Assembly (NCBI GenBank): GCA_973895155.1
Contig: OZ316897.1
Span: 19,781,224-19,845,223 of the forward strand
Origin: Marsupella aquatica
Lineage: Eukaryota; Plantae; Marchantiophyta
Direction: 5' to 3'
Length of the DNA stretch: 64,000 bases
How positions within the stretch are numbered: the stretch's first letter is position 1; each line of letters begins with the position of its first letter. Shown here in pieces: positions 2,081 to 60,193 of this stretch. The notes under the pieces are model-generated. The model was not told the DNA's origin. It searched no databases and saw nothing but the letters and a program-made list of their open reading frames with translations. The position numbers and the translations under genes are program-made.

Positions 2081-5000
2081 TAGGTCTTGTGCCTTTTTGA
2101 CAGCGGGAGGGTTCTCAAACATCTTTGCTGATTTTTAGCTGCATTCCTGATTTAGCTATTGAGCTCTACCTGGAGAAAGTTCCATAGGTAATAACCGAAC
2201 CTTCAAATCATAAGCTAGGGAGAAACGCATTGTATAGTTGGCAGGTTGAGAGGCAATGGAAGAAGACTTGCCCTTCTACTTTGTCATATTTACTGGCATT
2301 AACTGGACCAAGAAGTTGCCAAGATGGCTAATGAACTCTCAGCAGGCAGCTGGACACTTGCCAATCCTTGAAAATACAAGGGATGACATGACCTTTTGTA
2401 GGAAGGTCGTATAAGTGAAATAGATCATTTAAATTCCAAAATTAATATATTTATAGAATAATATTTCTGGACTTATGAGAAATGCCTTCCAAGATTCTCT
2501 GGCTACACGTGAAGCCACATCAACAATTTGCAGTCACAAACATGGATGTCTATGTTTGTTACAAGACTCAAACAAATTTCATGTGCATTTGACCGGAGGC
2601 CACCAAAAATGGTTAGACCATCAAACAATAAAAAATGTTTGTGACAACAAACAACAAGGTAAAGCCAACCACACAAATAATCCATTAAAGTTTTGAGATC
2701 AACTGATGGAGTCAGATATTGATGACTAAGGCTGCGCACCTTTTTAAAATACTTTTTAAAATATTTGGTAACTATCGATTTAAGGGAGGCAAAAGAGCAA
2801 CTTTCAAGATTTGAATCCAAGACCTATGAATACCTAGTCTAGTGAGTTACCACACAACCATGTCTGCTTTGGCAGTGATGTGCACGTTTAATTGAGAGTT
2901 GCTCATGTATCTGTGGAGTGTACTTTTTGAGTTTTCATGAAATTGTTAGGATTCTACTAGGGTACATCACCATCCTAAGTTGCATCAAATGAGTTTTTCA
3001 GCCATAACCTTATCCACTCAAGTCAGTTTGGGCTGAGATCCTTTTGATGAAACACTTGAAGAAATGGATGTCCCAAACAAATTCAGTGGCCCTCGCCAAC
3101 TCAATTGTAGTAGATGAGAGGGGAAAAGAAAAAAGAAAAAAGTGGGGGTGGGTGAGGGGAAAAACGTAACAAAATGATGCTACTTGACATAAATGATGTG
3201 GGGGAATCATTTGTATCCACAGAGAATCAATTAAGGGAGACTTCAACGGCCACGAGAGGAAAGAAGTGTAAAAAGGAAAATGATAGCAAACACCTTTTCT
3301 CTGCAAGGTGGTGACACCAAAATGAATCAATGCAAAAATGAATTATCACTGGGATCCCATAAAGGAGGAGCAAATAATGAGCTCCCTGTAGGTGCTATGA
3401 CATTGTGTTCCAATTATGGATATTTTGGAGTCCATATTCGTTACCACAGATCCAACAAGGGGTCTATGAGTATTTTGTGTAGGTAAGGACTGCGCTGAGT
3501 GATATCCTAAAAAACTGAAGTCACTTAGTTCACCCCACCAATAACGTGACAATCTCTCAACCTCGGACTCTGGAAGTCAGAGGGTGAGAAAAGGTTACTA
3601 AGGGAAGTGTTTAATCAGCCCACAAAAAGATAGGGACCCTATAGTAAGCATTCAAGGATCTCATCTTGGTGGGATGGCTTTGATCAAGGGAGGGACAAGA
3701 TATCAGGGCAGGAAGGAAGGCAGAGGAAAGACTGTAAAATAACCACTCTCGATCATTATTTGTGATCTTTAGGGCAAGGTTCGTTTACAGATTGAGAGGA
3801 CAATTCTTCTTTGTTCCTAGGCCAAACATGACTGAAATATGGTACTTGACTTCTGGTTTTCTTTACTGATCCTTTAAGTAAAGTAATGTAGTAGATCCTC
3901 ACATTTGTCTTTCCTTGCGCTTATATGTTATCTCCTCTCTGTCTTTTGGACCCCCTATGGCCCTATAGATGTGGTCCAAAACTTAGACGACATGCCAGTT
4001 TAATTTGTAGAGTACACTGTCATGATTGTTGATATTTTGACACAGATTTCAATCTGTCCTCCGACATTGATTTCTTTACCTTTATGGTGCTTTGGTTGGG
4101 GTGCCCTCTCGATTGTTGTGGGGAGATGCCTGCTCAAGTGACCTTTCACCAGTACAAAGCCAAACCTATTCTCCAATAAGTGGCCAAACTTTATGAGCTA
4201 TACCAAGTTTTTAAGTTGTTACTCAATAAGGTCAATAAGTCTTTACAGTAGTTATTTTGCCCTTGTTTGAGGCTCTATGGCTTTTTGGCTCTTTAATCTT
4301 CCTGAGTGTTTTCCCTCTATTGGGTTTGGGCTCTTTTTGTCCTTTGGCAGTGTTATATATTTGCATCTATATAGCATCAATCTCAACAAATGCCACATAG
4401 CAGAACCCCCCCCCCCCCCCCTATTCACTGCTTGTGAGGGAGAGTTGGTGGATGTGTCAGTTGGGTAAAGTGCAAGGCAAATCTCCAGCCTGGCCTTTTG
4501 TTCTCCCCTATGTACGTGTAGACTTTTACTTTGATGTTCATAAGATTTTCTTTCCAAGGGCAAAAATAGAACTCGTAATACATTTCCATGCACCCAAAAA
4601 GTGTATGATAACGCAAAAATTCCATGCAGTCTAACCCGCACCACCAATCCTGCTGAGATTCATACAGTTTAATTACCATGCATGAATGCATGTGGATAAG
4701 TGCATTCCATGGGTAACTGCAGGTAACAGCGCTTCTTGTAAGTGCACCAGAAAATGCATCATATGCAAGTCGGCATATCAACATAACTTATTGACAAATA
4801 CATAAGTGCATTTGTGTCTACCAGAGAGCACATGCATTCATGAATTAGCACAATGCATATGTTACAAGCATTTGTTGATAAGTGCAGTGGACAGCTACAT
4901 ACAATAGCTTCATGCACTGATCCAATTGAATTACGCCCGACAAGGGTTTGGGGAAGGTCTGGTGTATTTGACCTGACACTACATATGGCAAAGTGCACAA

Positions 5001-5448
5001 AGGATTTTCATATGCACTTATTAGACAGTGCAGCAATACCATATGGAAAAGTGTATAACTAATACTCATGCACTTTAACATAGTGCACAACATATATTAG
5101 TGCAGGTTGAAGACTATGTCCAATGGACTTTGGGTTTATGTTTTGGCACCCTTCACTTTTTGTCGCCCGCTCTAGCCCAATCAACTTTGTCTCATCAACT
5201 TCTTTCTTGTGAAGTCATGGTTTATGTTCTAGTAACACTTTTTTCCAACAGAGTCATGCTTCTTCATAAGAGACACATTTTTCCAACGGAGTCATGCTTG
5301 CTTCATAAGAGAGTCTCATGTTAGTGTTGAGAGGGAGCCTAGTACCTTAATTGGTTAAGAGTCATGATTGATAGTCTTGATTGATGTTCTACCGAGTGCA
5401 ACACTTCGAGAAACACTTCTTTCTAATGAAGTCATGCTTGTTTCGTAA

Positions 5449-5822
5449 TGTTAGGTTATGCCTCTAGTATAACCTATTTACTTCCATAGTACTAGCTAGA
5501 CTTCAGTAGACTAAGATTTGAGTTCTAGGTTCCCATAGACCATAGGAGGGGGTATACCCAAGGGGAACACAAACTTGTGCTCACACTTGAAGGTTCATTC
5601 TCTTGGAGAGAGAGTTCAGAGGAGATGAGAGAAGGAGCTATAGCATGTTGGCTATGGAGCACGTGTAATTGTGTTGAGTATTATTGGATTTGTCTTACGG
5701 TCGTGGATGTAGCCCAGATAGGGTGAACCACATACCTTCAGTGTTGAGTCTATGGATGTTGTTAACATGTGTTGATGCTATCATGTTCAATTATAGATTT
5801 ATCTTGAGATTTATTCCCAACA
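5449..5822 (+). mobile_element. Solo LTR (copia-like)
   Basis: TGTTAGG...CCCAACA ends; flanks CGTAA/CATAA (1 mismatch). Contains cgtggatgtagcc...ggtgaaccacatac, matching the motif cgtggacgtagcc...ggtgaaccacgtat on the minus strand of the LTR at 9543-9909. Confidence 0.7.
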
Positions 5823-6949
5823 CATAACAAAGTCTAAACTATTCAGGCAAAGCTTAGTACTTTCATTATATAAGAATATATCATGATTGATAGGGTCTTG
5901 GTTGATGTTCTGCCAAATGGTTCTTCTCTATGGAGTTGTGGTTAATGTTTTTAGCAACACTCTTTTTGATGGTGTCATGTCTGTTTTGTAATAGAGTCTA
6001 AGTGTCCAAGCAAAGCCTAGTACTTTGGATAAAAGTCATGATTAATGATAGTGTATTGGTTTATGTTCTGGTAAACTTGGGTGCGGCCGGAGCGGGCAGC
6101 AGCATTGGGGACTTGGGCCGGAGCGGGAGACTACAAGTGAAGAGACATAAACACAAAATTGATTGCACAAAGTTGATTGGGTCGGAACAGTTCATAGAAT
6201 GATAGAGTCTTGATTTATGTTCTGTCAAAGTTGGACTGGAGCAAGCAGCAACATTGGGGATTGGTATGGGCAGTGTACGAAGCCCCAGGAATATGGGGAA
6301 GCACTAACACGTGTAGATTAATGGAGTGTAGATTTAACCTTTGTTTGAAGTCTCATCTTGGTAATGCACTCAAACAGTCTAAAGTTGTACACTACCCTAG
6401 AATTCCTTTCCTTGGGTGATGCTAAAATGGGTTCACTAACTGTATCTCTTGTATTGGAGATGTCCTGTAGGAGTTTCATTAAAAGACATTCAATGAAACC
6501 CTTGCTAGACCAAAAAGGATTCAGGTCACGTATGGGGTTAATAAAGGCTAATGGCATTGATTAGTCTCAATCTTGAGTTTTGTTCTTAAACCACAACTCG
6601 GGGTACATAAGGACCCCGAGCCCTGCCCGCGAGCGTGCCACTCTGCCCGCTGGGTCAGAGACCAGTTCGAACCCGAGGGACTAACCCGGGGTCAGCAGGG
6701 CCGCCCTCCCCTCCCCCACCAGCCCTAGACTGCGACGAGCTGCCCCTGCGAGCTGCTCGCCTCCTCCCCGCTCCTCCCTTCGACCCCTGCGAGCTGCTGG
6801 CCTCCTGCAAGCTGCTCGCCTCCTCTCACACTCCTCCCTTCGAGGTTTTGGCTACCATAGCCAGCCACAGTGTGCCCATGCTCGTTGCACCATCTGCTGC
6901 CCCTGGTTGCTGTTGCCACTCAATCGATTGCCGAAGCTTGATGCATCCT

Positions 6950-7830
6950 TGGCTGTTGGTGCTTCATTCAACTTGCTGCTTCATTCGACTTGCTGCTGAC
7001 TTCAACTCGCTGCTGCTGGGGCTGTTGCTACCGAGGCTCGCTGCTGTTGAGGCTGTTGCTGCCGAGGCTCGCTGCTGCCTCCCAGCTGAATGTGTATGGC
7101 CTCCTCCGTTTGAGCTTACGGCTGCCATAGCCATCCACGGACTGCCCTACTCGCTGCGCCCTTGGCTGCCCCTGTTTGCGAAGCTCTCGGCTGCCCCTAC
7201 TCGCTGTTGCTGCTCGATTTCCTGCTTGATCTCGCTGCTGAAACAATTTTGTGCTTCAACTCAACTTGCTGCTGAATAGATTTGCTGTTTCAACTCATTG
7301 CTTGAACTCGCTGTTGAAGCTCATGCTGAAGCTCGCTGCTGAATCTTGCTGCTGCCTCGGCTCTTGCTGCTGAAGCTCGCAGCTTCAACTCGCTGCTGCC
7401 CTCGCTCGCTGCTGCCTTGGTCCAAGCTCGCTTGCTGCTGAAATCTTGCTGCTGCTGAAGCTATTGCTGCTGAAGCTCACTGCTTCAACTCGCTGCTGCC
7501 CGAGCTCGCTACTGCCTTGGTCCAAGCTCGCTTGCTGCTGCCTCGGCTGTTGCTGCTGAAGCTCACCGCTTCAACTCGCTGTTGCCCTCACTCGTTGCTG
7601 CCTCGGTCCAAGCTTGCTGCTGAATCTTGCTGTTGCCTCGGCTGTTGCTGCTGAAGCTCGCCGCTTCAACTCGCTGCTGCCCTCACTTGCTGCTGCCCTC
7701 ACTTGCTGCTGCCTCGGTCCAAGCTCGCTGCTTCAACTTGTTGCTGCCTCTGTCCAAGCTCTCTTGCTGCTTCAACTCACTTCTGCCTTGGGTCCCTCAC
7801 CAACCTCGATTGCTGCTCAAGCTTGCTCAT
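6950..7830. repeat. GCT/CTG-rich imperfect tandem repeat inside the transposon left arm
   Basis: Recurrent unit such as gctgctgaagctcgccgcttcaactcgctgctgccc...gcctcggtccaagctcgc; produces low-complexity ORFs in several frames. Confidence 0.75.
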
Positions 7831-8132
7831 TGCTGCAGGTCAAGGTTGCTTGCTCCATAGCTCAAGCTCCTTGCTCATGCCATTGTGCCCACATTCCAGC
7901 TTCAGCTTCACTAGGGATAGTGTCAACTCTCTGGTCCCCTCTCCTCCTTCGTTACATTGCAATGTCAATTTTCGAGCAATGTAGTATTCATGTCTTGTTG
8001 CAATGAGTCAGACTTGGTTTTGGGTGATTTGAGTCGGTCTCTACTGGATCTCTATTGTTGAATTCATATTTTATGTGAGTGTTGGGCAGCAACAGCATAT
8101 GTGATATTTGAGTGTTTGATTTTTTCAGGAAC

Positions 8133-8531
8133 ATGGCACCAATTCGAAAGTTGAGAGCCACATTGACTGAACATGACAATGGGACCTACACCTTGAGTTG
8201 GCAGGATCCTGCTGATGTTGGCGATGCTCCACCTATTGTCCGGACTGTCACATTGGAACAAGTCCAAGCTGATTTTCCTGAATTCTCTACTACAATTTCA
8301 GAGTGTCACATGGATCTCAATCCTGTAGTCCCGATTGAACAATTTATCATGTGCGCAACATACAGTTATGCTGAAACTGTCATGAGAAGGAAAAGATTTC
8401 AGGTCTACACTCACTTGGCTTACATAGCAGGGTTTTCTGATAGAACCAAGTTTCCCGAAGCTGTTGAAGCTTGTGTGAAGGCGACTTGGCATGATGAAGG
8501 GGAGGAATTTGTAGGATTTATTCCAAATTAG
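8133..8531 (+). CDS. KolX-like accessory protein (resembles C-terminal part of the P2X7 ballast domain), 132 aa
   Basis: ATG at 8133 just after a tttttcag acceptor. C-terminus RRKRFQVYTHLAYIAGFSDRTKFPEAVEACVKATWHDEGEEFVGF fits the R..Y......G...R...P..V...I...(W/F)P....(Y/F).GF pattern I recall for ballast/KolX proteins. Convergent with the transposase. Confidence 0.6.
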   Translation: MAPIRKLRATLTEHDNGTYTLSWQDPADVGDAPPIVRTVTLEQVQADFPEFSTTISECHMDLNPVVPIEQFIMCATYSYAETVMRRKRFQVYTHLAYIAGFSDRTKFPEAVEACVKATWHDEGEEFVGFIPN

Positions 8532-8851
8532 GAGTACACAGGCTTCTGCTATATATGTTTCACATTTGTTTGAAATTTCTGCCAAGATCTACTAATAAAC
8601 TGTTTGCAGAGTATAACTCCTGCTGGTTGGCAGCAAAAGGGGTTCAATTCCCCTTGGGAGTACATGGCTATGGGTTAGACATGGGTTAGAGTACCACAAG
8701 TGCAATTTTTCCAGGAGGAGAACTCTTGTTTGAAATATTGTGCATCACAATTGCACCTGTTACAGGGAGACAACTCTTGCTTTTGTTTGGCAGCATGAAA
8801 AGATCAATTCCCTTCAGATGTTGACATATTCAATGAAACCAAAATGAGACA

Positions 8852-9232
8852 AGGTTGCCAAAGGGACCCAAATGATACTACCTCTCAAAGCGGCCCAGAA
8901 ATGCCATATGTCAACCACAAACTTTACTCATTCCCTCACTTTGGTGCTCCACTTCTAAACTTTTCTCATTCCATCACTAGGTTGGCAAAGGGACCCAGAT
9001 GATTACTACCTCTCAAAGCTGCCCAAAAATGCCATATGTCATTCAATAACCACAAACTTTACTCATTCCCTCGCTTGGTGCTCCACTTCTAAACTTTTCT
9101 CATTCCCTCACTTGTTGCCCAGGTTATAAGACTGTCATTCAATAACCACAAACTTTACTCATTCCCTCGCTTGGTGCTCCACTTCTAAACTTTTCTCATT
9201 CCCTCACTTGGTGCCCAGGTTATAAGACTGTT
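8852..9232. repeat. Nested direct repeats downstream of the KolX-like ORF
   Basis: aaccacaaactttactcattccctc...ggtgctccacttctaaacttttctcattcc occurs three times; aagggaccca.atgat..ctacctctcaaag occurs twice. Confidence 0.8.
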
Positions 9233-9542
9233 TGGGCATGGTATGAAAACAATTGACGAAAAACATAATTTATAAAAGTTTGAAATTTTGGCATAGCATT
9301 CCAAGTTGATAGTAATAGGGTACCCCCAAGTCCGGATTGCTAACACTATCCATGCAAAAAGGATGAAATACAAGTGGTGCCAGGTCTCAGCCCTCCTCAA
9401 GGAAATCACCCCTCCAATGGTAAACAATAAAATTAGCATTGAGGTACACAAAATGACAAATTTTCACACTATAATGAATTGTTTCCAGAAAGAATAAGTC
9501 ACAATTTTCACTCACATGAGGTATGTTAGCCGAGGTCATATA

Positions 9543-9909
9543 TGTTGAGCATAGACGACGATCGCAACGGCAAGCCCATGAACCATCCAACGCACAATAG
9601 TCGACACAAGAGATACGTGGTTCACCTCCTTGAGGCTACGTCCACGGGAACACACAAGAGAGCTTTACTGAACTCTAAGCCCGTCGGCTATACCGAGTCT
9701 CCATAGTGTAAGCTCTCCCTATCTCTCAAGTGGCTCCATAACAATGAGCCTTGGTTCTACCTCTCCAAGCATACATGCCTCTTATGATATAGTGTGCAAC
9801 TTAGTTGTACCTAACCACATAGTTGTACCTAATCACGTAGTTGTACCAACCCACGTTGTTGTACCAACCACGTCATACCTAACCTAGACGTAAGAGTAAA
9901 TACCCAACA
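9543..9909 (-). repeat. 3' LTR (367 bp)
   Basis: TGTTGAGC...CCCAACA; near-identical to 15570-15972. Confidence 0.95.
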
Positions 9910-9910
9910 A

Positions 9911-9920
9911 TCTTCCCCTT
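9911..9920 (-). other. Polypurine tract
   Basis: AAGGGGAAGA on the minus strand immediately before the 3' LTR. Confidence 0.85.
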
Positions 9921-10101
9921 GACTCTGGTCTAGGGGAGAGTAATACTGCCAATGTACATATGATCCCTCAGCGGGAAGTTCTGGATAAAAACCAAACCGG
10001 TTTCCCTCTCTAACTAGAGCAAACCAGAACTAAGACATAGCCTAATACATAGGAATGAGGAAGAGCATATATCAGTAATTACAATGAATGTTAAGAAAAC
10101 T

Positions 10102-13100
10102 CTACTTGTGATGCAATTGCAAAACCTGCAATACGTCACGGTGTCTAGAGAAGCTCTCCAAAGGAATCACTTTGGTAAATGCGTCAGCCGGGTTGAGTTT
10201 ACCATCAATCTTGACTAGCTCAAACAAATTATCAGACACAGCCTGCCTGATAAAATGGTACCTAACGTCAATGTGCTTCACTCTGCTATCCATCACCTGG
10301 TTCACAGCAAGGTGGAGCGCACTTTGACTATCACAATGGAGCTTCACATTCCCCTGTGGCAATCCCATTTCAGTGATAAGTCTATCCAACCAAATCGCAT
10401 CCTTTGCTGCTTCCGCAGCTGCAACATACTCCGCTTCTGTAGTAGACTGAGCAATACACTTCTGCAAAGTAGACCTCCAACTTATGCATCCACCGCCAAG
10501 TGTGAACACGTATCCTGTTGTTGATCTCCTTCGGTCCAAATCTTGTCCATAGTCAGAATCAACATAGCCAATCAATGATTTAGCATTCTTTGCATTCGCA
10601 TCAAATAAAAGACCATGATCCACGGTACCCTTCAAGTACCTGATAATCCACTTCACTGCTTCCCAGTGTACCTTCCCTGGATTCGACATGTACCTGCTCA
10701 CCTTGCCCATAGCCATGGCAAGATCAGGTCTAGTGCAAGTCATCAAATACATGAGACTCCCCATTGCCTTGTCATACGGAACCTTTGACATCAACCCCTT
10801 CTCTGTGTCATCCGTAGGACAGAACGCTGATGATAACTTGAAGTGTGGAGCCAACGGGGTACTTACTGGCTTGCTATTCCCCATGTTGAACCTTGCAATT
10901 ACCTTCCTCGCATAACTGCTCTGCGTCAACCATAGCTTGCCAACCTCCAAGTCCCTAGTGATCTCCATACCCAAAATCCTCTTAGCTGGCCCTAAGTCCT
11001 TCATCTTAAACTCTGCACTAAGCAGTGCCTTGAGCTTAACAATCTCAGACCTATCCTTGGCTGCAATTAGCATATCATCCACATAAAGTACTAAAACAAT
11101 GAACCCAAAGACAACATTCTTTACCGGTTTCAAATACACACAAGGGTCAAATACACTTCTGTGAAAACCTTGTGACCGAATCCAATCGTCAAACCGCTTG
11201 TTCCACTGTCTTGGTGACTGCTTCAACCCATACAAGGATTTCAGCAATCTGCAAACCAATTCCTCCTGTCCTCTCTTCACAAAATCTAGCGGTTGTCTCA
11301 TGAAGATCACCTCTTCCAATGTGCCATAGAGGAAAGCTGTGACAACATCCATCTGATCTAGCAGCAGACCAAACATTACAACAAGTACACACAATAGTCG
11401 TATTGTAGAGTACTTAGCAACTGGTGAGAAGACCTCATTGTAATCCACACCTTTCTCTTGTGTGAATCCCTTTGCTACCAATCTAGCCTTGTAGACCTTC
11501 AATCCACCTCCTATGGAATTATCCTTCAGCTTGTAAATCCACTTGCTGTCCACCACTTGCTGACCCTTAGGCAGCTTAACAAGCTCCCAAGTTTTGTTGT
11601 CCTTTAGTGACTGCATCTCTGTTTGCATTGCTGTAGTCCACTTCTGCTTCTCCTTTGAAGCACTTGCCTCATGAAATGAAGAAGGTTCCCCTTCTTCCAA
11701 AATTAACGCATCACCCTCATCATCAGTTGTAAAATCATCCTCTTGCAGTTGAGATGAATCAACCCACTGTCCATACCTTGGTGGAGCGCGTACAGTGTGA
11801 CCAGATGTTCTTCTAGCCGATGGCTCCGGTTGATCTGCGTGTGCTGGTATAATTTGAAGCTCAACAACATCCACTTGCTGCTCACCAGCATCAACAAACT
11901 CCTCTGGTTCCTCTGGCACAGGAACCAGCTCCATAATTGGAGCAACTCTTTCTCTCCGGTCATGCACCTCATAACCAATCTCCCCCTCAACGAGATCCGG
12001 GATAAGAGATTTTTCTTTGTCAGTACGGGAGACCTGAGTATTCTCCCCCTCCTTCAATAATCTGGATTCATTGAAGGAAACATCCCTACTGACAACGAGC
12101 TTACAGGCAATAGGATCCCATAGCCTATAGGCTTTCACACCAGTCTGGTACCCAAGAAAAACACATTTCTTGGAGGTACGATCCAACTTGGTCCTATTCT
12201 GCTTCGGTGTGAGATCATATGCATCACTTCCAAAAACTACCAAGCCATGATAGTCTGCTTGCCGCTTATAGCGCATCTCAAACGGCATTTTGAAATTGAT
12301 AGCACTAGAAGGAGAAAGATTTACCAAATAAGCTGCGGTATTGACAGCTTCTGCCCAAAATTCTTGTGGTAAACCTGATTGGCTCAACATACTCCGTGAC
12401 CACTCCAACAGTGTCCAATTGAGCCTCTCAGCGAAACCATTCTACTACGGAGTATAAACTGTGGTGAGATGACGAGTTACCCCCTGTTCTGAACAGTACT
12501 CTTCAAATTCCATTGAAGTGTACTCCTCGCCCTTGTCTGACCTCAGACTCTTCACCCTTGTATCCAAACACTTGATCGTGTTTCCAGCCTGATTCTCCAC
12601 CTGGGCCTTCCACTTCTTAAAAATGGACAAGACATCAGACTTATGCGTCATGAAATAAATCCACACAAATCTTGAGTAATCATCAATAAATGATACATAG
12701 TACAACTTTCCAGAGTGTGAGGGAGTCGGGGATGGACCCCACACGTCACTATGTATGTACTCAAGAACCGTTTTGGAACGATGAGTTCCAACACCAAAAG
12801 CACGACGATGTTGCTTTCCAAGAATGCAATGCTCACAAAACTCTAATTTACAAGATTGCAAATCAGAAATGAGTCCATTCTTCCGTAAGATAGCCAAACC
12901 CTTCTCACTCATGTGGCCTAGCCGTGAATGCCATAGTTGAGTCATCTCCTCGTGAGACTTGGTTACATTGGCCTCTCCACATACAGTATTGCCCTGTAAC
13001 ACATACAAATTCTTTTGTCTACTCCCCTTCAAAATCACTGTCTCTCCCGACCTGACTTGAAGTTCACCATCAATAACGCTCCATTGATGACCATTTGAAT

Positions 13101-13374
13101 CCAACACACCGAGTGAAATCAGATTCTTACGCATGCCAGGTACATACCTGACTCCGGACACTGTGCGCATAGCGCCATCAAACATTTGAATCTTCACAGA
13201 CCCAATTCCCTCAATTTGACAAGAGTGATCATTTCCCATCAGAACTGAACCATTTGAAACAGAGTAAGAACTGAAAAACTCACGAATGTAACAAATATGA
13301 AAAGAGCAAGCACAATCAAGAATCCACATATCATCTGCTCTCCTAGATGACGTGCACAGGGCATACCCCCGGCT
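10102..13374 (-). pseudogene. pol: copia pol (protease, GAG-pre-integrase, integrase, RT, RNase H) with two in-frame stops
   Basis: WILDCACSFH protease motif; LWHSRLGH and CEHC; HSDVWGP and FIDDYSR integrase; YVDD RT; HIDVRYHF RNase H. TAG TAG at 12442-12447 replaces QQ of TPQQNG. Confidence 0.92.
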
Positions 13375-14415
13375 TCATAAAACATACTCATCATTGAGTA
13401 AATCAGCTTCTCCATCAGCCCTAGCCACATTTGCCGATGAAGTTTCCGCTGCCTTTCCCTTACAGTCTCGCTTGAAGTGTCCAACTTGGTTGCACTTCCA
13501 ACATGTCACCTGCCTCCTCTGAGGGGATTTACCCTTGGACTTAGATTTGAATTTAGATCTAAACTGGGTTCTACGGTCCCCAGTTGGTCGCTGCATACTC
13601 CTCCCACGGTTAACATTGAGGGCAGCACCAGATGATGAAGGCTGTGACGTGATGTGCATCTTCTGCTGAAGATCATCACTAAGCAGAGAACTTACCACGT
13701 CATTGTATGAAATGGTATCCCTATCACGATGCAACAACACTCGTGATAGGGACTGGTAAGATGGAGGCAATGAACTAAGAAGCTGCAGAGCCTTCGTCTC
13801 ATCATTCAAAGTCTCCCCAAGGTTTTCCAAGTCAACGACCATGTCGTTGAAAGCATCCACATGGTCTTGCAACTTCGTACCGGATTCCTTCATCCTGAAA
13901 CTCATCAATTTGTAGGAAGTGTAGAGCCGGTTCGACAACTCCTTGCGGTGATACTTGCTCTGCAATTCCGCAAACAAGGACATGCAATCCTTATGTGCAC
14001 CCAACTGCTTGATGATGGGAGGCATGAGATAGAGTGTAACACACCACACTCCCTGCTCCTGCATGCGGTCCCATTGTTTCTCATCAACATCGTCTTCACG
14101 AGGGCTCAGCAGTTGGCCCATCCCTGACGCATAGAGCACTCCCTTCACCTGCTTCTCCCATAGCAAGTAGTCAGAGCGCCCATCATACTTTGTCACTTCA
14201 TACTTGGGTCCCCCAAGCTTGAAAGTCCCCATCTTCTTCTTTGGCACTACCGTGAGCTCCGGTAGTAGTACTGCTTCCTCCACCACACGCCGCACCGGTG
14301 ATGGTATCGGTGTCACGTGCTCTTCCTCCTGCTCCTCTCTCTGCCCCTGAAACCTCCGCGGTGATCCTCGTGATTCAAGTTCCACGTCTTCGAAAAACTC
14401 CTCCGAATCACTCAT
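13375..14415 (-). CDS. gag: copia Gag (UBN2-like core plus CCHC zinc knuckle)
   Basis: KYDGRSDYLLW, LLSSLPPSY and CWKCNQVGHFKRDC motifs; ends at a TGA in frame with the protease. Confidence 0.9.
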   Translation of the reverse strand: MSDSEEFFEDVELESRGSPRRFQGQREEQEEEHVTPIPSPVRRVVEEAVLLPELTVVPKKKMGTFKLGGPKYEVTKYDGRSDYLLWEKQVKGVLYASGMGQLLSPREDDVDEKQWDRMQEQGVWCVTLYLMPPIIKQLGAHKDCMSLFAELQSKYHRKELSNRLYTSYKLMSFRMKESGTKLQDHVDAFNDMVVDLENLGETLNDETKALQLLSSLPPSYQSLSRVLLHRDRDTISYNDVVSSLLSDDLQQKMHITSQPSSSGAALNVNRGRSMQRPTGDRRTQFRSKFKSKSKGKSPQRRQVTCWKCNQVGHFKRDCKGKAAETSSANVARADGEADLLNDEYVL

Positions 14416-15555
14416 ATGAGAAAATCACAAAAAATGTTGTTTTTCACAACTTCTCAAAAAACTCGAAACTCAACACCGCCGCGTAGCCCACAAAGCTAGG
14501 AGTCCAATACTGAAAACCGAAATCAAAATCGAAATTTAACGGAAAAGTTATTCAAATTTTGGTCGAGGTGGGTAAATCCTTGGGAAACTCCCCCGTTTTG
14601 AACACCTCAGGGAATAACCGAAATACCAAGTACAACCCGTTGTCGGAATTGCGATGTGATTGGTGCGCCGCGTTGCCAACTTCAATGGCTACGACCTCGC
14701 CGAAAAATAACCAAAAAAGTTACCGTTCGGCGGATGAAATCTTTGTCGGACGGTCAAAAAATAGCTCTCTGGTTTTTTTGGAATATTCTATGACCCTTGT
14801 ACAGGCCCTGTGGGAATTTTGGAAGAACAATCGAGGGGCTGACACGTGTCCTCGAACCCCCAAAACCCCCTACCACCCTTCGTCGTCGAAATCTGGTCGC
14901 GCGCGCAGAAAATACACACGGCAGAATGTACCCCTCGACACCAAACGCAAGATATCTCACTCGGGTTTTGACGAAATCAAGATCCGATTTCAGATTTGGA
15001 AACTAGACTCCGAGGCGGTGAAGATCGATATAAGAAGCACCCAAAACGAGGAAAGAACAAGGGAGAAAAAAATTGGTAAAGATAACAGATTTCTCTCAAT
15101 TGCCATAGCCAATTTCGAATCAGTTTTTCAAAGAGAAAAAAATGGTACCTTGTCAACAAGGAATGTTGATCAATTGCACTTGGTGCCGTCACCAAGTCCA
15201 ACAAGGTAATTGATTTTGCTTAGCCTTCCTCTTTGCATCAAAGAGCCAATCCCGGACTCAAAATAATCGTCTTGCCTCAATCTCTCCGTTGAGTCAAAAC
15301 ACTTGATGCTTCTCCCTCCGAGTCGATTGCCAACTTTCTTCACAAAATCCAGAACGACAAAAACTTAGATCTCTCTGCACCACGAGCTCCGTTCAACAAT
15401 TTCTTCACACCGTTAGAAAGCTCTTGCCCTGATCTATCCGTTGAGCCCATAAACTCCAAGTTCCATGCGACAGAACTCTGGGAAATCCACCAACACTCAA
15501 CGCTGGAAAAACCGTCATGAAATCCCGTCACGAACACACGTCACCTCCCAAGCAT

Positions 15556-15567
15556 GCTCTGATACCA
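15556..15567 (-). other. Primer-binding site (tRNA-iMet type)
   Basis: TGGTATCAGAGC on the minus strand, 2 nt inside the 5' LTR boundary. Confidence 0.93.
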
Positions 15568-15569
15568 AT

Positions 15570-15972
15570 TGTTGAGCATAGACGACGATCGCAACGGCAA
15601 GCCCATGAACCATCCAACGCACAATAGTCGACACAAGAGATACGTGGTTCACCTCCTTGAGGCTACGTCCACGGGAACACACAAGAGAGCTTTACTGAAC
15701 TCTAAGCCCGTCGGCTATACCGAGTCTCCATAGTGTAAGCTCTCCCTATCTCTCAAGTGGCTCCATAACAATGAGCCTTGGTTCTACCTCTCCAAGCATA
15801 CATGCCTCGTATGATATAGTGTGCAACTTAGTTGTACCTAACCACATAGTTGTACCTAATCACGTAGTTGTACCTAACCACATAGTTGTACCTAATCACG
15901 TAGTTGTACCAACCCACGTTGTTGTACCAACCACGTCATACCTAACCTAGACGTAAGAGTAAATACCCAACA
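15570..15972 (-). repeat. 5' LTR (403 bp)
   Basis: Same sequence as the 3' LTR plus one extra 36-bp block of the 18-bp ttgtacctaa(c/t)cac(a/g)tag repeat and at least one substitution. Confidence 0.95.
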
Positions 15973-16161
15973 ATATATGGAGGTGTTACTCCATATGTAC
16001 GATGATCTTATAGAGAGAAAGTACTTGGGTGGTAATGTCTGAGCATCTAGGATGACATGAAATCATCCTGCAAAAAAACAATTTGTAATTAGAATTACCT
16101 CAAACATACCCTATCCTTACATTTTATGCTTGCAATCATATTTATGGAGGAGTGTCTTACC

Positions 16162-19100
16162 TCATGGACTTGTCACACCATAAATGCGTTCACTTGTTGT
16201 GTCCTTCCAACTAGTGGTGCGGTCCACCAATACTCGTGTTCGAGGAGGACGCTCTCTGACACTTGTATTCACAGGTCTGCTATCATATACCTTCCAAACA
16301 TGTCTTCTTATATTCTCGTTCCAATCCATGGCAGCACAACACAAACGGGCCTCATGGCTTGCCGAAAAATGAATACGCTTGGTGGCATACTTGCCCATGA
16401 CGGAATGGTAGGTCTCTGACATGAAATTCTCCCGGGCCATGGTATAAAACCTCATCTTCGCAGGAGTAATGTATTTTTTCATGAACTTTTGCATAGCCTT
16501 GTGAGTCTTCCCACCTACATGCACAAAGTACAAAAATTCAATAAAAAAGTCATGCATGGAAGTTCAATCATGCTAACATGTGACATAAGTCACAAAAGGA
16601 GGTCACAAATTAAATTACTTACCTCTTGCATAGTAATGGTCAAGCTGGATAGCTTCTACTTCCTCAAGATGCTGACAAGGTCTGTCAGATAATCTCGCAC
16701 ATAAACTATGATCCCCGGCCCAATGATCACCACAATTGCTCAACTCGAAGGCCAGAGATGCAGCGTCCCCCCCACTGCATATTGAACATTCTATAGTCAA
16801 ATAGGGTAAAATAAACCCAAACCAAACCAACATTAGTATTTACACATTATATCAAATTGAAAAGTCACCAAACATGAACATTGTAAATACCTGCTCTTAC
16901 ATCGTCGACAACATACATAAAACCAGGTCTTGAACTTTGTGGCAATGTTGTGTTGAGACAACTCTGGGTACTTGAGACCACGTGTCGGAATATGTACTAG
17001 TTCACCTAGAGGCAATCCACGCATGTCGCCAACTTTGTGAACAAGTGCTTCCTTCCTAAGGGTTGAATACCCTCTCACTCCCCGTGCCTTGAACCAATCC
17101 TGTAATCTCTTAGCGGTTACTGCTTGCAACTCAGAACGGGATGCGGCAGTATCAATGTCAATAGTCACAGTATATGTGGCGCTCACCATCTTCTCCACAA
17201 ACTTCTTGACAAGGTTTTTGGCCTTGTGCCACAAGTCCTTCTGGTTCCTAATCTCCATGTCCTCCACAATATTATCAATAGTGGCTTTGTCATCATGGAT
17301 AACCTCTATGATAGAAATGCCAGCCTCTCTCAGATTATCCAATGCTCTCTGAGTACCCTTGTCCTCCATGTGCCAAGCATTTCTCTCCTCTCTTCTAGTA
17401 ATTGTGACCATCTCAATTACCCTATTATCTTCCATGCTCAAAATAGAGGTGGTACCATGATAACCGCTCCGAGAAGAATCCCATCGAGTATCCAAATACA
17501 CTACTAACCCAGGGTCTGTCATAACCAATGCATATAGTAACTATTAGAATCAAAACTCATCATGACCCAATAAGACTTTGATCCTTGAGTAACTAGAGAA
17601 AGTGAAAGAGGGTAACATAAATTACTTACTAGTCTCAGTTGCTCGCCTCTGCTGAATAGTATCCCTCAATTGCTGCCACATATGCCTTTTGTTTTCTTCC
17701 CATTGCTGTCTCACAGCTGCTATCCATCCACCCCGAGGACGACCACGACCACTCTGAAAGTCATGCCAATGAGCTGCAGTGGGGACATGTAACCCAAGAT
17801 GCGCGGCAACAGCAGCCAAGGAGGTATAGGTGAGGCCAGCACAAAGGGTGGAATGATACAAATGAGGGGTAATCATAGGCGAACTCCTCCCAGGCTCATT
17901 GTCACCCGTAACAAAAGTCCAGCCATGTCCATCCTCTCCACAACCAATATGAATAGACCACAACTGATGCAACTCGGACACTCGCTCAACTCTTGGGATC
18001 CGAGGACATGCATGTATATGACACCGGGGTAGTAGCCTGTCAACAAAAGTACCCAACAAGTTGCGATCAAAAAATGCTACCCTGGCTGGTACACGAGGGC
18101 TCGTTCTACGAGTCGGGAGTGCGTCGGGAGGTCGTAACGGCTGAGAGTCAGGTGCGCGAGATGCCTGAGAGTCTGCAACCCGGGATGGCTGATCATTGGC
18201 CTCTGGAGATGGCTGAGGGTCTACATCTGGAGAAGGTCGAGACATCTGGGAATCGGGGACGATGAACAACTCCTGTAAAAAATGTCACGGATATGAATTA
18301 AAGATTGTGTCTCAACAATTGCAAAATTGTAATGGGAAGCCTTGGATAATGTGAAAGAGCTCAAACCTGGAAGGTATCCCCATCCCCAATGTGGTCAGCT
18401 CCTAAAGTTGCAACAACATCTGGATCATCATCCCGATACATGGATTCATCTTCTGCATCTGATCCATATTGCTCTGCAATATTCTTGTCTAAGACAACAT
18501 CCTCTTCGAGTAGTGCATCCTGGAAGACAATGTTGGGATTATACAAAAATAAATACTCCACAAATATGGTTACAATAAATCCTAAGGTAGAGTTTGACCA
18601 ATAATTATTGACCATATTGGTGGAGGGTTATTGAAGCCAGTTTTCTTCAATAAACACAAACCTGACCCCCAAGGCATGACCCAAATGGAAATCACAGTAT
18701 AGCATAAGCTTGAACCCAAGGAACATACAAATATAAATACATGTGCTTGTTTATTATGACCCTTGAGTACCCTAATACCTGACCTAATCAGGTTTACTAA
18801 ATTTTTGTTTCAAATAGAAATTACAATACAGCACGAGCTTCAATGAAGGGTTTATATATTCAAATATAAATACATGTGCTTGTTTATTATGACCCTTGAG
18901 TACCCTAATACCTGACCTAATCAGGTTTACTAAATTTTTGTTTCAAATAGAAATTACAATACAGCACGAGCTTCAATGAAGGGTTTATATATTCAAATAT
19001 AAATACATGTGCTTGTTTATTATGACCCTTGAGTACCCTAATACCTGACCTAATCAGGTTTACTAAATTTTTGTTTCAAATAGAAATTACAATACAGCAC

Positions 19101-19685
19101 GAGCTTCAATGAAGGGTTTATATATTCAAATATAAATAATTATGCTTCTTGGTACAATGGGAGACTTTCATTTTCCTTCAGATGTGATTTATTATTTATG
19201 TTTCAAATAAGAAGCATAGTACAGGATAAGCCTAAATCAATGGGTTTATACAAAGGGCCAAAATGAATTGCTAAAATGGGCAAATATTGAGTAAATGAAA
19301 GGAGGTTCCCACCTGAAGTGATGACTGTGAAGCCTGACCCATGTGCTGACCACTTGTGGGCGAAGGCATAGCCTCGGGTGGAATTGGAGCGGCCTCAGCT
19401 GCTCGCCATACCCGAAGCTCCTGAACTATAGGCCGTGCACGATCAAGTAACCATGTGACCATAGTAGAGTGGGTCGTATCCTGTCCAAGTAGAGCTCTAA
19501 GGTCCTCCCACTCATCCCACCGGTCAAGTGGGACCCGGATTTCGGGCTTGGCATCCGGTCTCCGCCTCTTCTTGTAATCGATGTCATCACTCGGATATCA
19601 CTGCCTTGGTGGACCACCACCCTGTGGGGGGCGTTTCCGCCTCCCATCCGGAAGAGGGGGGGGGGGGGTGACCCGGCATACTCAT
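16162..19685 (-). pseudogene. Multi-exon Kolobok-type DDE transposase, probably disabled in exon 1
   Basis: Phase-consistent GT-AG exons: ~19685-19313, 18519-18367, 18272-17630, 17515-16891, 16774-16623, 16514-16162. Motifs LDTRWDS (D), MEDKG, IHDD (D), DLWH, HWAGDHSLC, SETYHS..KYATKRIHF..R..AAMDWNEN (E). In-frame TGA at 19598-19600 and a G-run frameshift near 19656-19668 in the putative first exon. Confidence 0.75.
18728..19138. repeat. Three apparently identical 133-bp tandem units in transposase intron 1
   Basis: Units start at 18728, 18861 and 18994, with a partial unit at 19127: caaatataaatacatgtgcttg...gggtttatatatt. Confidence 0.95.
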
Positions 19686-22600
19686 ACTAGCCTATCCTAA
19701 AACCTACACTAAAAAAAAACCTATAAGCTCTAAACGGAGAACGGAGACCGGATGCCAAGTCCAACCCGGCAAGCAACTACAAAGTTGCACCAAAAAACCT
19801 CAAGTTGAACACAAGTAGAAAGGTAGTAAGAGGTGAGAATAAAAATTTGGGGAGGACAATGAGGCCTGAATGCAAGCACACAGGCTCTTTGCCCCCTGCC
19901 AGCCCTCTACCCCTCTTCCCCATTGGCTACATCCCCTTAGATCCTGGTCGTCCAAAGCATTTTTTTTAGTAACCCTAACACGTTCCCTAACCAGCCGCCG
20001 CGCTAACTCACGTTGCAGAATTTTTTCCGCCACCCACATAGGGCAGCGCACACTGCAGCTGCCAAAAAGGTACAAGTCACACAGAGGACACTTGCGAGTT
20101 TTGAACCTGAGACCTCAAGTACACAGGCAGGAGTTTGAACCGAAATGCTAGGAGGAAATCTTCGAAAATAGCAAAGCGAAAACTATAACTAAACTAATGA
20201 AGGCCGCTCAGGCCCACAAGGGCAGGGCCGGGGCCCTCTTTGGCCGGATGTCCCACACAACAAAGGCCTGTGCTGCCCGACCATATGAGAGCCTGGCCGC
20301 ACCCGCGAAGGAGCCCTGCCACAGGCATTTTCCGCAGGCCAGATGTCCCCTGCCCGACCTGCCCGAAACTTTTCAAATTTGAATTTGTGGCTCTGCCAAT
20401 CAGAACACTACATTTGTTTTTCACAATTTTCTTTCTTATTTTTTATCATTTTTAATCCTGGTTTTTTTGTATACGTAGATCTTGAAGAGATCTTGAATTT
20501 GAACCGTGGATCGGGTCATTTGGTGGACGGATAAGATTTTTGCAAGCTTCGATCGAAGGGCTGGCGACGGGCGCCCGTCCACAAATGCGAATGTCGCGTT
20601 TTTGTTATGTCTACTCCGGGTCACCCGGAGTACTTGTAGTACGATTTGTGGTTTAATAAAAAAAGGAACATGTTTAAACTTTCTACTGAGGATCACTGCC
20701 ATGTGCCTGCATTAATTCCATTGGAATTTTGAGTGCTGTAATATTATGTCGCTCGTGTATTCTAGGCCAGCATAATTACACAGGCCCTCTCATTTACGGG
20801 GCTCCGCTCAGTCGCTCACATGCATCAATGGTGTAAAACTGTCAAGAGGAGGGAGGACTTGAGCACTCCCCAGTTCTTTCTCCTTTCCGTTCTCCACTAG
20901 TAGACCTTCACGAAAATTGTCTCCACGGCCAAAAATGCAGTGAGAATATCACACAGTCGCACTGTAGTGGATTTCCAACGAAGTACGAAGATTCCGTGTG
21001 TGATCACGTCATCAAGTCAGCAGGATACTTTTTGAGCTTCGTTTTGTAAGGTCCATGAATCCATGCAACTTTAGAGAAAAGTAGACCTGTCAACTGCTCA
21101 GTGCTGCACTGTGCGACAGGTATGCCTAATGAGGATTCTGGTAAAGTAGTAGCCAAGGCACGGCCCGTCGATTGTAAATATGGTGTCAAGTTACTCGATA
21201 GCCATGACTGGATCGACTACGTTCATTTATAGCCGGTACATTGTAAATGGTGTCAAGTTACTCGATAGGCATGACGGGATCGACTACGTCCATAATTATG
21301 TGCCATAGTCACAGACGGCTCCTTTTTTCAGAGACTGGACTACTGGAGGTGATCACTTTAATTAGTAGTCTTGGCCGACACAAGAGTTATCTTGTTCCTT
21401 CCCAGTCAGTTAATTGGTACTTTAATCGGCGCAAGCTCCCCCAGCCTTTTGTTAGTTTGTATCCTTTGGTGTGCCACTCGTCTGTCGGCATGAGTCGCGC
21501 TCCACCACGCCTCCATTCTATGCTAGTGACAATCTTTAGATTCTCATTTGGGTTTTCATGGTGCTAAAATAATGAGCCCACAAGAGCAGCCAAAATTCAG
21601 AGTCGATTCAAAATGAAACTCAATCCAGGATGGACCAAGTTTGCCCAAAAAGGCTCATTTAGATTTTTGCACAAAATTATAGTGCAACGCGCTGCTTCTA
21701 TGGCTTGATACAAAATAAGGCCAGCTTCACAACTTTTAATGCCGTAACTTCCACCAGGATGAATTGCAGGGAAACTTGCTCTTAGTACAGATTCAAAGAC
21801 CAGTGAAATGTGACAAACAAATTAGACAGTCATCTTTGAAACTTAGTAGGTCCCTCAATTCTCGATGAAATTTGATTTACGCCACTCATTGGGAAATATC
21901 TTACAAATCAGTTTCTAACAAATCCAAGAAAGCCACTCATTGGGAAATATCTTTCCACTCACTGTGGGCACATTATGTATGAGTGAAATACTAAATGTCA
22001 AAGTTACTTGCTAGAAACCTTTTGGAAGCATAAAGTGTGGACAATGAGTGATGCAGTGATCTTGAGAAATTCAGAACTATCTCAATTTTTCATGAAAACT
22101 AGAGATATTAGGCTTTGGAAAGATCTTTCCAGACAACTTGTGACAAGCCCAAGTAGAGAGCCTAATTCTGCTTGATAGAAAGGGAGATGTTGAAGGTCAA
22201 ATTTGCTATTGATAATAATTTGGAAAGGAAGAAGAAGTATCAATGAGTGGTTTCTTGCATTGGGCAATGACAACATCCCAAAGGAGGGACCTTCAAATAA
22301 TATTATTACATGTCCGGAGTCTATGGTGGTGGAGGGTAGATGTGTGGAGTCTTGATTAATACAATTTACCTATCTCTTTTGAATATGGATGGTAAGTTCT
22401 TAAGGGGGAGAACTATCTTGATGCTAACCATTGAAGATGGGCTAAAAATAAACAATTGTATTCTAGTTCTAAGTACTTTTGGGAGAGAATTGAATTTTTG
22501 AGGGTCTATTGTCTCTCGATCAACTGGAAGGGGAGAATTTTTATTGTATGGAGTTGTTGAATAGGCTCATGGGGTCTCCTATTTTTTATGTGCAATTATT

Positions 22601-44252: not shown

Positions 44253-46362
44253 CATACTGTCATTTTTGGCTTTCGGAAACCTTGCAACGTCGCCATGGTG
44301 TGTAAATATTAATTAAAGCGCTTCTTAAGATATATTCCATTCTCAAAAGAGTCAACAGCTTGCCTGTCCAAGGCTTTCCTTTGGATATTCGTGGTATGAC
44401 CTAAATGCTACAAAACAAATCCTTGAAAATGTTTGGGTCTATTCTTATACTTAATTCTGTTGCTGTACCATGCCATGTCACTTGAGACTTAAAAGATCGC
44501 AAACCCTTTGCTTTAACTTCACGATTTGAGGATGGCAAGCTTTGGTCATGGTTTGTTGCACAACGTCATCTTCTTAGGGAAACAACTCGCCCTTATAACC
44601 TATTTTTTCAACTTTGCAATGGGATCCACTAGTTTAAAGAGGTCACTCAGTCAGTTGTCTCAAGCTATGGTCCGTGAATGCTAAGTTATTGATTCATTTG
44701 CAAGTTTTCACAAATGGAGGATATGCACAGTCTGGTTGTAGGTGGTTTGCCCACGTACTTGTTACTGGGAATCCCCTGTTCGAAACAAAGACTGGGGATT
44801 GTGTCCAACTTGGGGAAGCGTTAAAGAAATGCCCATGTTAAACCCTAGTGAAGAGGGTACAGCATACTTCATGCCCTGTGACCTTAAATTTTTCCCAAAG
44901 CGGGTATCTCACCTATAATTAATATTTCCACGCCCAGTTCAGGTAAGATCGATGGTGTGTGTTTAACGTGCATTGTCAACTACTTAAAAAGTGTGTAGCA
45001 CATCTAGATCTCCTGACCTTGCAGCTCTTGGTGAGGATTTTTAGTTGAAGAACGATGCAATTTGCGGGTGCAGTTGGCATACTCAGGCCCTTGGAATTTC
45101 CCCAAGCATATCACCATGCATTCTCCCCGTGTATAATTTTGAATGTCATGGGCAGGAAGCTTCGATTCCGAGTCGTACGTAGTGCGTACTTGACAGGGCT
45201 AAATAGGCCTCTCCGTTGACCCGGCTCACCGTACTTACTCGATAAGGAGTATTTAGTATTTAGGGTAACTCCAGGTACGTCGGTGCAAGTCAATTAGGGC
45301 TAGGGGGCCTTGTGCCGATTCGGTGTCAGAGCCAGGAACGAACTCAATTGTGGCATGGCACCTCGACCTATTGTATTTTCCATGAGTCAACATTTCAGCC
45401 AGCTAGTTTAGTTGGGAAAGTAAGCTCGAATAGGAGCTATAATATTGATTATTAATAGCCTCTAACCCGGCCTCTAATAACCAAAATTGTTTTTTCGGAC
45501 AAGATTCGGACTAGTGATATATCGAATAAGGTACGTTTAAGCTTGGCTGACATGATTGAGTTGAAAGTGTGGCACTTCGCCCAGAATGTGTGATTACTGC
45601 CAGATAAGAATTCACTATAAAGGTGGGTCAAATAAGATTTGAATCGTAGACCAGATAGAATTGTAACGGTAGACCAGACTATAATTGTTTGTCCTGAGTC
45701 ATTCATCCTTGGCCAGCCGGAACTCTTTGAGGTGGCGCAGAGTGGGATTACTGCCGGATACAATTCATTTTAACGGTAGGCCAGATATGTTTGTAACGGT
45801 AGGCCGGACACGAGTCATTTGTCCTTTTCTAGTCTGTCCTCTTTGTAGAGTATGGGGATTTCTATGGATAAAGGCATCCCGAAAGATCTACCAGGGTCAT
45901 TTTCCACTGTTCTGCCATTTTTTGAGCCTTGTTATTCTGAAGTTGGAGGAAGCCTTCTTGTCACGAGTTCAATTTTCTTCCACATAAGTATGTAGACAGA
46001 GCTTTCACTTTGGGCCAATTTCTTCAACAGAGCTAGTAGCAAGGACAGGATTTGAAAGTCGGGACGGCCTATTTTCTCTCAGGAAGGGAAGCTAGAGATC
46101 GGAGACCTGCAAGAGATAGTGCGACAAGCTAGGAGTACGTGGCGTGTAGAGAGTAGGTACGTGCAGGTACGAATTAGCAGGAGCCCTGCAGTTCCGAATT
46201 AAAGCCATCCCAGGAGGTGAGATCAACCGGGAGGAATAAGCCCTGAAAAGCACAAAGATCGTTTGAAGCTAAACTTCAGAGAAGCTACGTCCTGCAGGAG
46301 GAGAAGTTCGCAAGAGAAATATATATAGTGTCTTTGTGATCGACATACTTGCACGTCTTGAA

Positions 46363-59883: not shown

Positions 59884-60193
59884 ACCACAACTGTGTGGAT
59901 AAAAGTGCCCCTTCCCTTACCCGGGCACTCTTCATAAAAACCACAACTGTCCATATAAATTAAAGGGCCCCCTCCTCTACCCCGGCACTCTTCATTCCTT
60001 CTTGGCTAGGGGGTTTAATTTTTGCAAAAATGGTATATCATATGCAAGAAGCATAGTGTCATTTTATGTAATCGATTCTAAAAACAAAAGACTGTCTATC
60101 TGACGAGACTCAAGCCCAGTAGGTTGCCCTAGGGGTTACTCATATCAGTTGACCAATTAGAGCCCCATAATGAGTCATAGGGGTAGTTGTGGT
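59884..60193. mobile_element. Possible short non-autonomous relative of the TTAA/ACCACAA transposon
   Basis: TTAA|ACCACAACT ... AGTTGTGGT|TTAC; the left end is tandemly duplicated (second ACCACAACT at 59940). Confidence 0.45.

Follow-up and report, generated by a model that had tools for sequence, protein, structure and literature searches.

Does the genome of a liverwort carry a Kolobok DNA transposon? The question was raised by a stretch of 64,000 nucleotides from Marsupella aquatica (assembly GCA_973895155.1, contig OZ316897.1, positions 19,781,224 to 19,845,223, forward strand). The whole stretch is called the window here, and all positions are counted from its first letter. The original prediction had placed a complete two-gene Kolobok-type transposon at 6590–20652. 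Kolobok elements use a TTAA target and have 5'-RR..YY-3' termini; they are known from animals, fungi, protists and algae, and the published entry for plants consists of a chlorophyte and rhodophytes only (PMC9587614). The results made it highly probable that 6590–20652 is one copy of a multi-copy, TTAA-flanked family. Its DDE transposase would be homologous to those of Kolobok, belong to a separate liverwort and green-algal branch, and likely act by cut-and-paste. The element adds a branch to a mechanism already known and brings in no new one.

Boundaries, composition and copy number of the element

The transposon occupied 6590–20652, with TTAA on either side at 6586–6589 and 20653–20656. Its terminal inverted repeats were 11 bp long, read ACCACAA(C/A)TCG, and matched at 10 of 11 positions. 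Both features had been predicted. The parts of the element are listed below.

6586–6589, no strand: left TTAA target-site copy, read from the sequence; an X2 contig starts here
6590–6600, plus strand: left terminal inverted repeat, 11 bp, begins AC; 10/11 match to the right end
6597–6620, no strand: left subterminal palindrome with two inverted CTCSGGGT motifs; possible transposase-binding sites
6740–7800, plus strand: GC-rich internal repeats of GCTGC type upstream of the small gene; probably non-coding (no Pfam match, two long frames)
8133–8531, plus strand: accessory gene of 132 amino acids, KolX-like at its C-terminus, without a Cys cluster; an open reading frame of 132 codons convergent with the transposase
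9538–9542, no strand: ATATA duplication left of the copia element; second copy at 15973–15977
9543–15972, minus strand: nested Ty1/copia retrotransposon, separate from the DNA transposon; gag-pol frame interrupted by stops
16068–16160, minus strand: possible intron of the 3' untranslated region just behind the transposase stop, suggested by GT-AG signals only
16162–16514, minus strand: exon 6, catalytic E (codon 16416–16414) and stop
16623–16774, minus strand: exon 5, H..C..C motif between DxxH and E
16891–17515, minus strand: exon 4, first D (17492–17490), second D (17294–17292), DxxH and insert
16953–17201, minus strand: stretch of 83 residues within exon 4 that includes the insert (15–21 residues in animal relatives), with a putative SAP-type helix pair by alignment
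17630–18272, minus strand: exon 3, low-complexity linker followed by a Cys/His cluster that animal Kol0 transposases also have
18367–18519, minus strand: exon 2, acidic linker; its junctions are the least backed by homology
19313–19685, minus strand: exon 1, conserved N-terminal domain other than THAP; frame disrupted as assembled
20614–20630, no strand: right subterminal palindrome, again with CTCSGGGT
20642–20652, minus strand: right terminal inverted repeat, ends GT
20653–20656, no strand: right TTAA target-site copy; contigs with different flanks beyond

The 11-bp inverted repeat by itself was weak evidence for the boundaries. Two TTAA-flanked pairs matching at 10 of 11 positions were present among 28,680 pairs of the window, and 0.36 were expected from shuffles. 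Since the repeat alone was not significant, the boundaries rest on contigs of six public sequencing runs under three organism codes. Three X1 contigs and seven X3 contigs at the right end departed from the window straight after 20656. Their mutual agreement beyond this point was low (X1 0.61, X3 0.48), which indicated different flanks. One X5 contig tracked 20453–20656 and then continued into about 500 unrelated letters. At the left end, an X2 contig with a depth of 405 began at 6586, while the depth of the flank contig was only 82. The X1 flank contigs were identical to the window and entered the element by 24–26 bases only, the bridging threshold being 31 bases. Sister pieces were near-identical (1–4 differences per 330–490 bases), and their depth was several times that of the flank contigs. 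The different flanks and the excess depth therefore indicate that the family is multi-copy and bounded by TTAA. Copies running past 6590 or 20652 and a target-site duplication of 8–9 bp, which the original prediction had named as contrary signs, were not found; sister copies diverged right after TTAA.

Other contigs had only 20612–20656, the last 45 bases, in common with the window, which fits a needed end. CTCSGGGT occurred six times in the window, four times within the two ends (1.7 expected); the motif was picked after the ends had been inspected.

The nested copia element lay about 185 bases behind the transposase stop. The only differences between its long terminal repeats (LTRs; 9543–9909 and 15570–15972) were a single substitution and a repeat indel of 36 bp, so the insertion is young. 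A contig joint from 9537 to 15973 was found in all four runs examined, and sister copies without copia therefore exist. Without copia, the element measured 7,628 bp (14,063 − 6,435), in agreement with the predicted 7.6 kb. The long frames 6611–7279 and 7560–8006 were rejected as genes: they were repeat-derived and had no family match, and relatives of the small gene begin at the ATG at 8133.

Other repeats were also observed in the window. A 310-bp stretch resembling a miniature inverted-repeat transposable element (59884–60193, within 59880–60197) had a perfect 9-bp inverted repeat equal to the first 9 bases of the left end. It was flanked by TTAA and TTAC, and is possibly a non-autonomous relative. 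A second TTAA-flanked pair with a 10/11 inverted match, at 47599–49984, may be due to chance. Left of the element, 5000–6170 was highly repeated DNA with a contig depth far above that of the right flank, and 46 bases within it were 72% complementary to the copia LTR.

Transposase gene and its Kolobok relatives

The transposase gene consisted of six minus-strand exons with five GT-AG introns, as predicted, and gave 736 open codons from 19597. The exon model was based on homology and splice signals. The predicted motif series was present: D..WD, ME..G, D.WH (DLWH, conserved), E.YHS..K and D.N.N. This D-D-DxxH-E series is that of a DDE transposase. Conserved H, H/C and C residues of exon 5 aligned with those of the relatives and form a predicted zinc-finger motif between DxxH and E. 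The spliced transposase aligned end to end with Riccia proteins, among which P0001 was 39% identical over 742 columns. Three near-identical tandem units of 133 bp were noted within intron 1 (18725–19150).

The original prediction had called the element complete. Both ends of the window copy are present; its coding frame is not intact as assembled. Exon 1 contained an in-frame TGA at 19600–19598, and a run of 13 G (19656–19668) separates this stop from the likely start ATG (19685–19683), which is out of frame by one base. Every contig examined over 19600 carried a different base there, and the ATG was in frame in a relative from X5. The TGA and the frameshift could be lesions private to this copy, or errors of the assembly; rare variants are lost from contigs.

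A search with exon 4 gave 166 representatives at E ≤ 0.001 among 1.84 billion proteins, and also gave nine longer proteins, eight of them from Riccia sorocarpa. Among the best 150 of the 166 matches, the plant-clade profile gave the higher score for 122, and for the other 28 the animal profile scored higher or equally; three of these 150 were unrelated proteins caught via the insert or repeats. Thirty proteins, including 28 transposase matches, were looked up by name. The plant-side relatives named in this way were from Riccia, Calypogeia fissa, Chara braunii and Closterium, together with one cluster labelled both Pyramimonas and Prorocentrum, which is a probable prasinophyte protein. The named animal relatives were from Mya, Argopecten, Lytechinus and Saccoglossus. 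Mosses and vascular plants were absent from the 28 named transposase matches, most matches not having been looked up by name. Scans for plant-clade loci gave pattern matches in viral contigs (39) and metagenome contigs (46), of which none was confirmed.

The plant and animal profiles were aligned by hhalign with a probability of 99.93% and an E of 3.5e-36 over 376 columns. The animal set was anchored on the best 80 of 472 confirmed loci. A KolX exon was present in 46 of these 80 loci and was convergent in 42 of the 46. TTAA-flanked inverted ends were found in 14 of the 80, and an AG or AA pair was among the two best shown for 13 of the 14. PF20478 was matched by all ten animal partner exons tested. 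Because of the TTAA-flanked AG/AA ends and the PF20478/KolX partners, the animal set represents Kol0 elements as defined in PMC9587614. Judged by sequence, the DDE transposase with its six exons is a homologue of the Kol0 Kolobok transposases of animals. The predicted Kolobok assignment was thus upheld, the relatives being Kolobok-type with no MULE or piggyBac signal. One animal-type Kolobok with a THAP transposase (L039:107–3668) had its KolX gene upstream and divergent, in contrast to the usual convergent layout.

The predicted three-dimensional model of P0001 (predicted local distance difference test score, pLDDT, 75) showed an RNase H core with an insertion. Among solved structures, it best matched the transposases of IS256, Hermes and P, at Foldseek E of 4e-4 to 2e-3 and with Z of 11–13 and a root-mean-square deviation of 4–12 Å over 225–316 residues. 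The best structural neighbours in the Atlas (template-modelling score 0.75–0.76) were animal PF20700 clusters. Other neighbours had RNase_T or YqaJ domains, which fit KolobokD and KolobokE (PMC9587614).

Trees were built without the insert columns and were unrooted. In the 45-row tree (LG+G4; six gappy or partial rows omitted), the plant and algal rows, together with the window protein, formed one side of a branch with support of 98/84. The support of this green branch was 98/95 in the 37-row mixture-model tree (14 rows omitted). Kol0 was supported at 100/99 and a third animal-type group at 100/100. The rows nearest to the window protein were Riccia proteins. The transposase is placed by these trees in a separate branch with Riccia, Calypogeia, Chara, Closterium and the probable prasinophyte protein, outside Kol0. 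The inner order of the branch departed from the host tree: Closterium was outermost, and the Pyramimonas-labelled row was near the liverworts. As the trees lack a root and the branching inside is unlike that of the hosts, the lineage may have been inherited vertically, with old paralogues, or may have been transferred horizontally.

The transposase likely carries an extra DNA-binding domain of SAP type before the catalytic E; neither this insert nor the lesions of exon 1 had been part of the original prediction. The stretch after DxxH had 58–107 residues in plant rows (about 250–350 in Closterium), whereas full-length other rows had 12–26 (15–21 in animal relatives). Relatives matched SAP families of Pfam in this insert, and the profile matched a solved SAP-type domain of the PDB at E 0.0017. 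The N-terminal domain was conserved across liverwort rows and was not THAP; it matched the N-termini of two animal Kol0 proteins (P0146 and P0170) at E of about 1 only. Its apparent strand-helix-helix pattern presumably recalls the ribbon-helix-helix motif.

The convergent small gene and alternative readings

The predicted small convergent gene was found on the plus strand, with a splice-acceptor-like site 4 bases before its ATG. Ten relatives at 50–71% identity, two of them from Calypogeia fissa, mean that it is a conserved gene. It was not seen beside a transposase in any other genome, the scans for plant-clade loci having confirmed none. The original prediction had by implication taken it for KolX; the opposite orientation was borne out, whereas the likeness to KolX proved weak. 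This likeness was confined to the last 46 columns (hhalign against animal KolX exons, probability 59.8%, E 8.8e-5), and the exons compared had been selected with the same small-gene profile. The KolX cysteine cluster was absent, the 11-member alignment having one invariant Cys. No fold was clearly matched by the model of the small protein (pLDDT 79), the lowest Foldseek E being 0.12 and the highest Z 5.3; P2X7 ballast was not among the fold matches listed, no Atlas match was usable, and Pfam yielded nothing useful for this gene. Matches to formate dehydrogenase at E 0.02 were taken as chance. An enrichment for KolX over all clusters (p 1.7e-6) was discarded as circular, 7 of the 13 clusters having been chosen with the same profile. 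At 141–242 lay part of another copy of the small gene, decayed and frameshifted (tblastn E 5e-8), a sign of older insertions of the lineage.

Several observations weigh against a Kolobok element with a KolX-derived gene. Enrichment for KolX on the six held-out clusters reached only p 0.025. The reverse search ranked the small gene 1 or 3 of 811 open reading frames of the window at E 0.65–2.5, and PF20478 was matched by none of the 11 small-gene family members. The insert stretch of the window itself gave no direct Pfam SAP match, and the structural evidence concerns a model of the relative P0001, not the window protein. The trees contained neither named Repbase Kolobok sequences nor a MULE or piggyBac outgroup, and the apparent links to named Kolobok families come from by-eye reading of Data S5 of PMC9587614. 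On the conventional parse, the ends are AC..GT, contrary to the published RR..YY rule. An empty TTAA site was not seen among the contig joints and loose ends listed.

It is possible, if rather doubtful, that the lineage is Kolobok-related while the small gene is an unrelated accessory gene, its last 45 residues being KolX-like by chance. No Pfam, PDB-sequence, Atlas or fold match named P2X7 ballast, an absence that is inconclusive there, and the N-terminal 85 residues had no KolX counterpart. However, the top two hits of the profile among 5,389 open reading frames, and many of the next, were PF20478 exons matched at the same C-terminal segment; the reversed control showed no enrichment (p 0.82). 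The position and orientation of the gene are also those of KolX. In addition, the KolX-like proteins of piggyBac-2_GrCh and piggyBac-14_PI (Data S6, PMC9587614) are short, Cys-poor and like the C-terminus of KolX, and the tail of the former, R..P......W.DE....GF, appeared by eye to be similar to that of the small protein. They differ in being carried by piggyBac elements and in their N-terminal part. A KolX origin of the small gene is probable from these comparisons.

A second alternative concerns the ends. The true ends may lie one base outward (AA..TT), with TA alone duplicated within the TTAA target, and the RR..YY rule would then be obeyed. This is improbable. Insertions into TTAA cannot discriminate between AC..GT with a 4-base duplication and AA..TT with a TA duplication, as both parses yield identical sequence whenever the target is TTAA. 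The 310-bp stretch at 59884–60193, which has the same ends, fits TA exactly with its TTAA and TTAC flanks (one case), but one later substitution would also explain TTAC. All ten right-end sister contigs listed retained the full TTAA, and animal Kol0 loci gave TTAA with AG or AA on the conventional parse. Because the AC..GT ends of the conventional parse fail the RR..YY rule, the element was filed as a variant Kolobok lineage and not as a canonical member.

An ordinary Kol0 element (transposase plus KolX) in a plant, possibly transferred horizontally from an animal or fungus, is very unlikely. The window element resembles Kol0, as represented by Kolobok-1_XT (PMC9587614 and the accessible text of PMC6004289), in several respects: TTAA on both sides, short and imperfect inverted ends whose first base is A, and a DDE core that includes DxxH and has a Cys/His cluster upstream. 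It also has a small opposite-strand gene downstream of the transposase and a length of about 7–8 kb. The convergent layout is that of most animal loci, Kol0-type proteins were among the nearest non-plant relatives, and the size resembles that of Xenopus elements (6.8–13.9 kb; Table 5 in the same text of PMC6004289). However, forcing the window protein together with the Kol0 rows was rejected (approximately unbiased test, p 2.6e-5), and much closer relatives were found in liverworts and algae. The element differs from Kol0 in that the second base of its ends is C and not a purine, the transposase is longer by about 65 residues ahead of the catalytic E, with a SAP-type motif there, a THAP domain is absent, and the host is a land plant. 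TTAA flanks, a DDE transposase, Kolobok homology and a zinc-finger motif between DxxH and E were thus found as in Kolobok; the KolX cysteine cluster and a transposase inside the clade, which mark Kol0, were not.

MULE/MuDR elements have a duplication of 8–10 bp and long inverted repeats, whereas the window element has a 4-bp TTAA and 11-bp ends. The piggyBac elements share the TTAA duplication and lack the C/DxxH signature, which is listed for five superfamilies other than piggyBac (PMC9587614); DLWH is present and conserved here. A MULE or piggyBac element, or a chance TTAA-flanked repeat pair around a host gene, is scarcely credible and was largely refuted because contigs ended at TTAA and the plant and animal Kolobok profiles aligned. 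IS256 as the best structural match of the P0001 model, and the weak scores that some relatives obtained with 'Mutator-like' and MULE families of Pfam, would favour it. Since true Kol0 transposases also carry the PF20700 'Mutator-like transposase' label, this label is no argument for MULE. PF10551 was matched at E 1e-5 by one of the 150 listed exon-4 matches, a THAP-bearing protein of the animal set, and piggyBac families by none. A transposase firmly within MULE or piggyBac, the remaining contrary sign named beforehand, was not seen. A 'Mutator-like' automated label had also been predicted; it was borne out as weak PF20700 scores in some relatives, but the Riccia relatives are labelled 'SAP domain-containing protein', and the window's own exons gave nothing useful from Pfam and no such match. 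PF20700 marks Kolobok-type proteins in these data and can mislead annotation.

Known families, proposed mechanism and significance

Kolobok-16_CGi, Kolobok-1_OwFu and Kolobok-1_MyEd (Data S5, PMC9587614) were matched by eye to five unnamed database proteins. The Kolobok-16_CGi-type group is like the window element in its D.RHD-type first motif, D.WH, and H...H..C...C segment before E. It differs in having no insert and in forming a separate, fully supported branch. Kolobok elements of green and red algae are on record as Kolobok_1_KlNi, Kolobok_1_MicRcc299 and Kolobok_1_CCri (Data S5, PMC9587614). By eye, the first D is followed by a CCHC finger in the first two; the motifs of all three are different, and none of the families resembles the SAP branch. 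The code KlNi is taken by us to be Klebsormidium nitens.

A mechanism may be proposed for the family. The transposase would bind the 11-bp ends and the CTCSGGGT palindromes, excise the element and insert it into TTAA, likely by cut-and-paste. The SAP-type insert may add a DNA or chromatin contact. The convergent small gene may be a Cys-less KolX descendant acting as an accessory factor, and each gene would be driven from its own element end. The window copy as assembled would make no full transposase; keeping both ends, it may be movable by an intact sister.

The land-plant origin of the DNA, which had been predicted, agreed with the Pfam matches of the window genes: DUF247, DUF679, xyloglucan endotransglycosylase (XET_C), KIB1-4 F-box and homeobox KN. 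Within land plants, only the closest relatives of the two element genes pointed to a liverwort. A single-frame protein with two homeobox KN-type domains was found at 46273–47352 (plus strand). An intron-less, divergent gene of the TBP family was found at 54074–54688 (minus strand; Pfam E 1e-44).

No land-plant Kolobok family was recognised among the names in Data S5 (PMC9587614). According to the accessible text of a 2025 screen of 1,007 plant genomes, Kolobok was among 17 superfamilies sought, and active elements came from seven others only (PMC12973397). In the accessible text of a spinach paper (one of PMC6337768, PMC8616336 and PMC11735767), the single mention of Kolobok is within a pooled count of 67 elements that had been classified automatically. 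The accessible portions of the PMC13182070 supplement and of PMC12885004 contained no Kolobok row and no matching passage, respectively. No described land-plant Kolobok was found in the literature searched; Repbase, Dfam, subscription journals and the supplements of the Riccia paper may hold one. The predicted plant lineage with AC..GT ends is supported as separate, and is undescribed only with respect to the literature searched.

The broadest interpretation is an unnamed ancient green Kolobok branch with a captured SAP domain, AC..GT ends and a zinc-free KolX derivative, which extends from algae to liverworts and was recently active there; it stands at about an even chance. If true, land plants would gain one more DNA-transposon superfamily, overlooked by standard pipelines, and the 'SAP domain-containing proteins' of Riccia would be transposases of the lineage. 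A young multi-copy land-plant family, with diverse relatives in two liverworts and streptophyte algae, widens the host range of Kolobok. An 11-bp repeat and a transposase invisible to Pfam can conceal a whole lineage. A plant-derived TTAA-specific transposase would become available for testing, and the story of KolX and P2X7 ballast would reach plants if the small-gene link holds.

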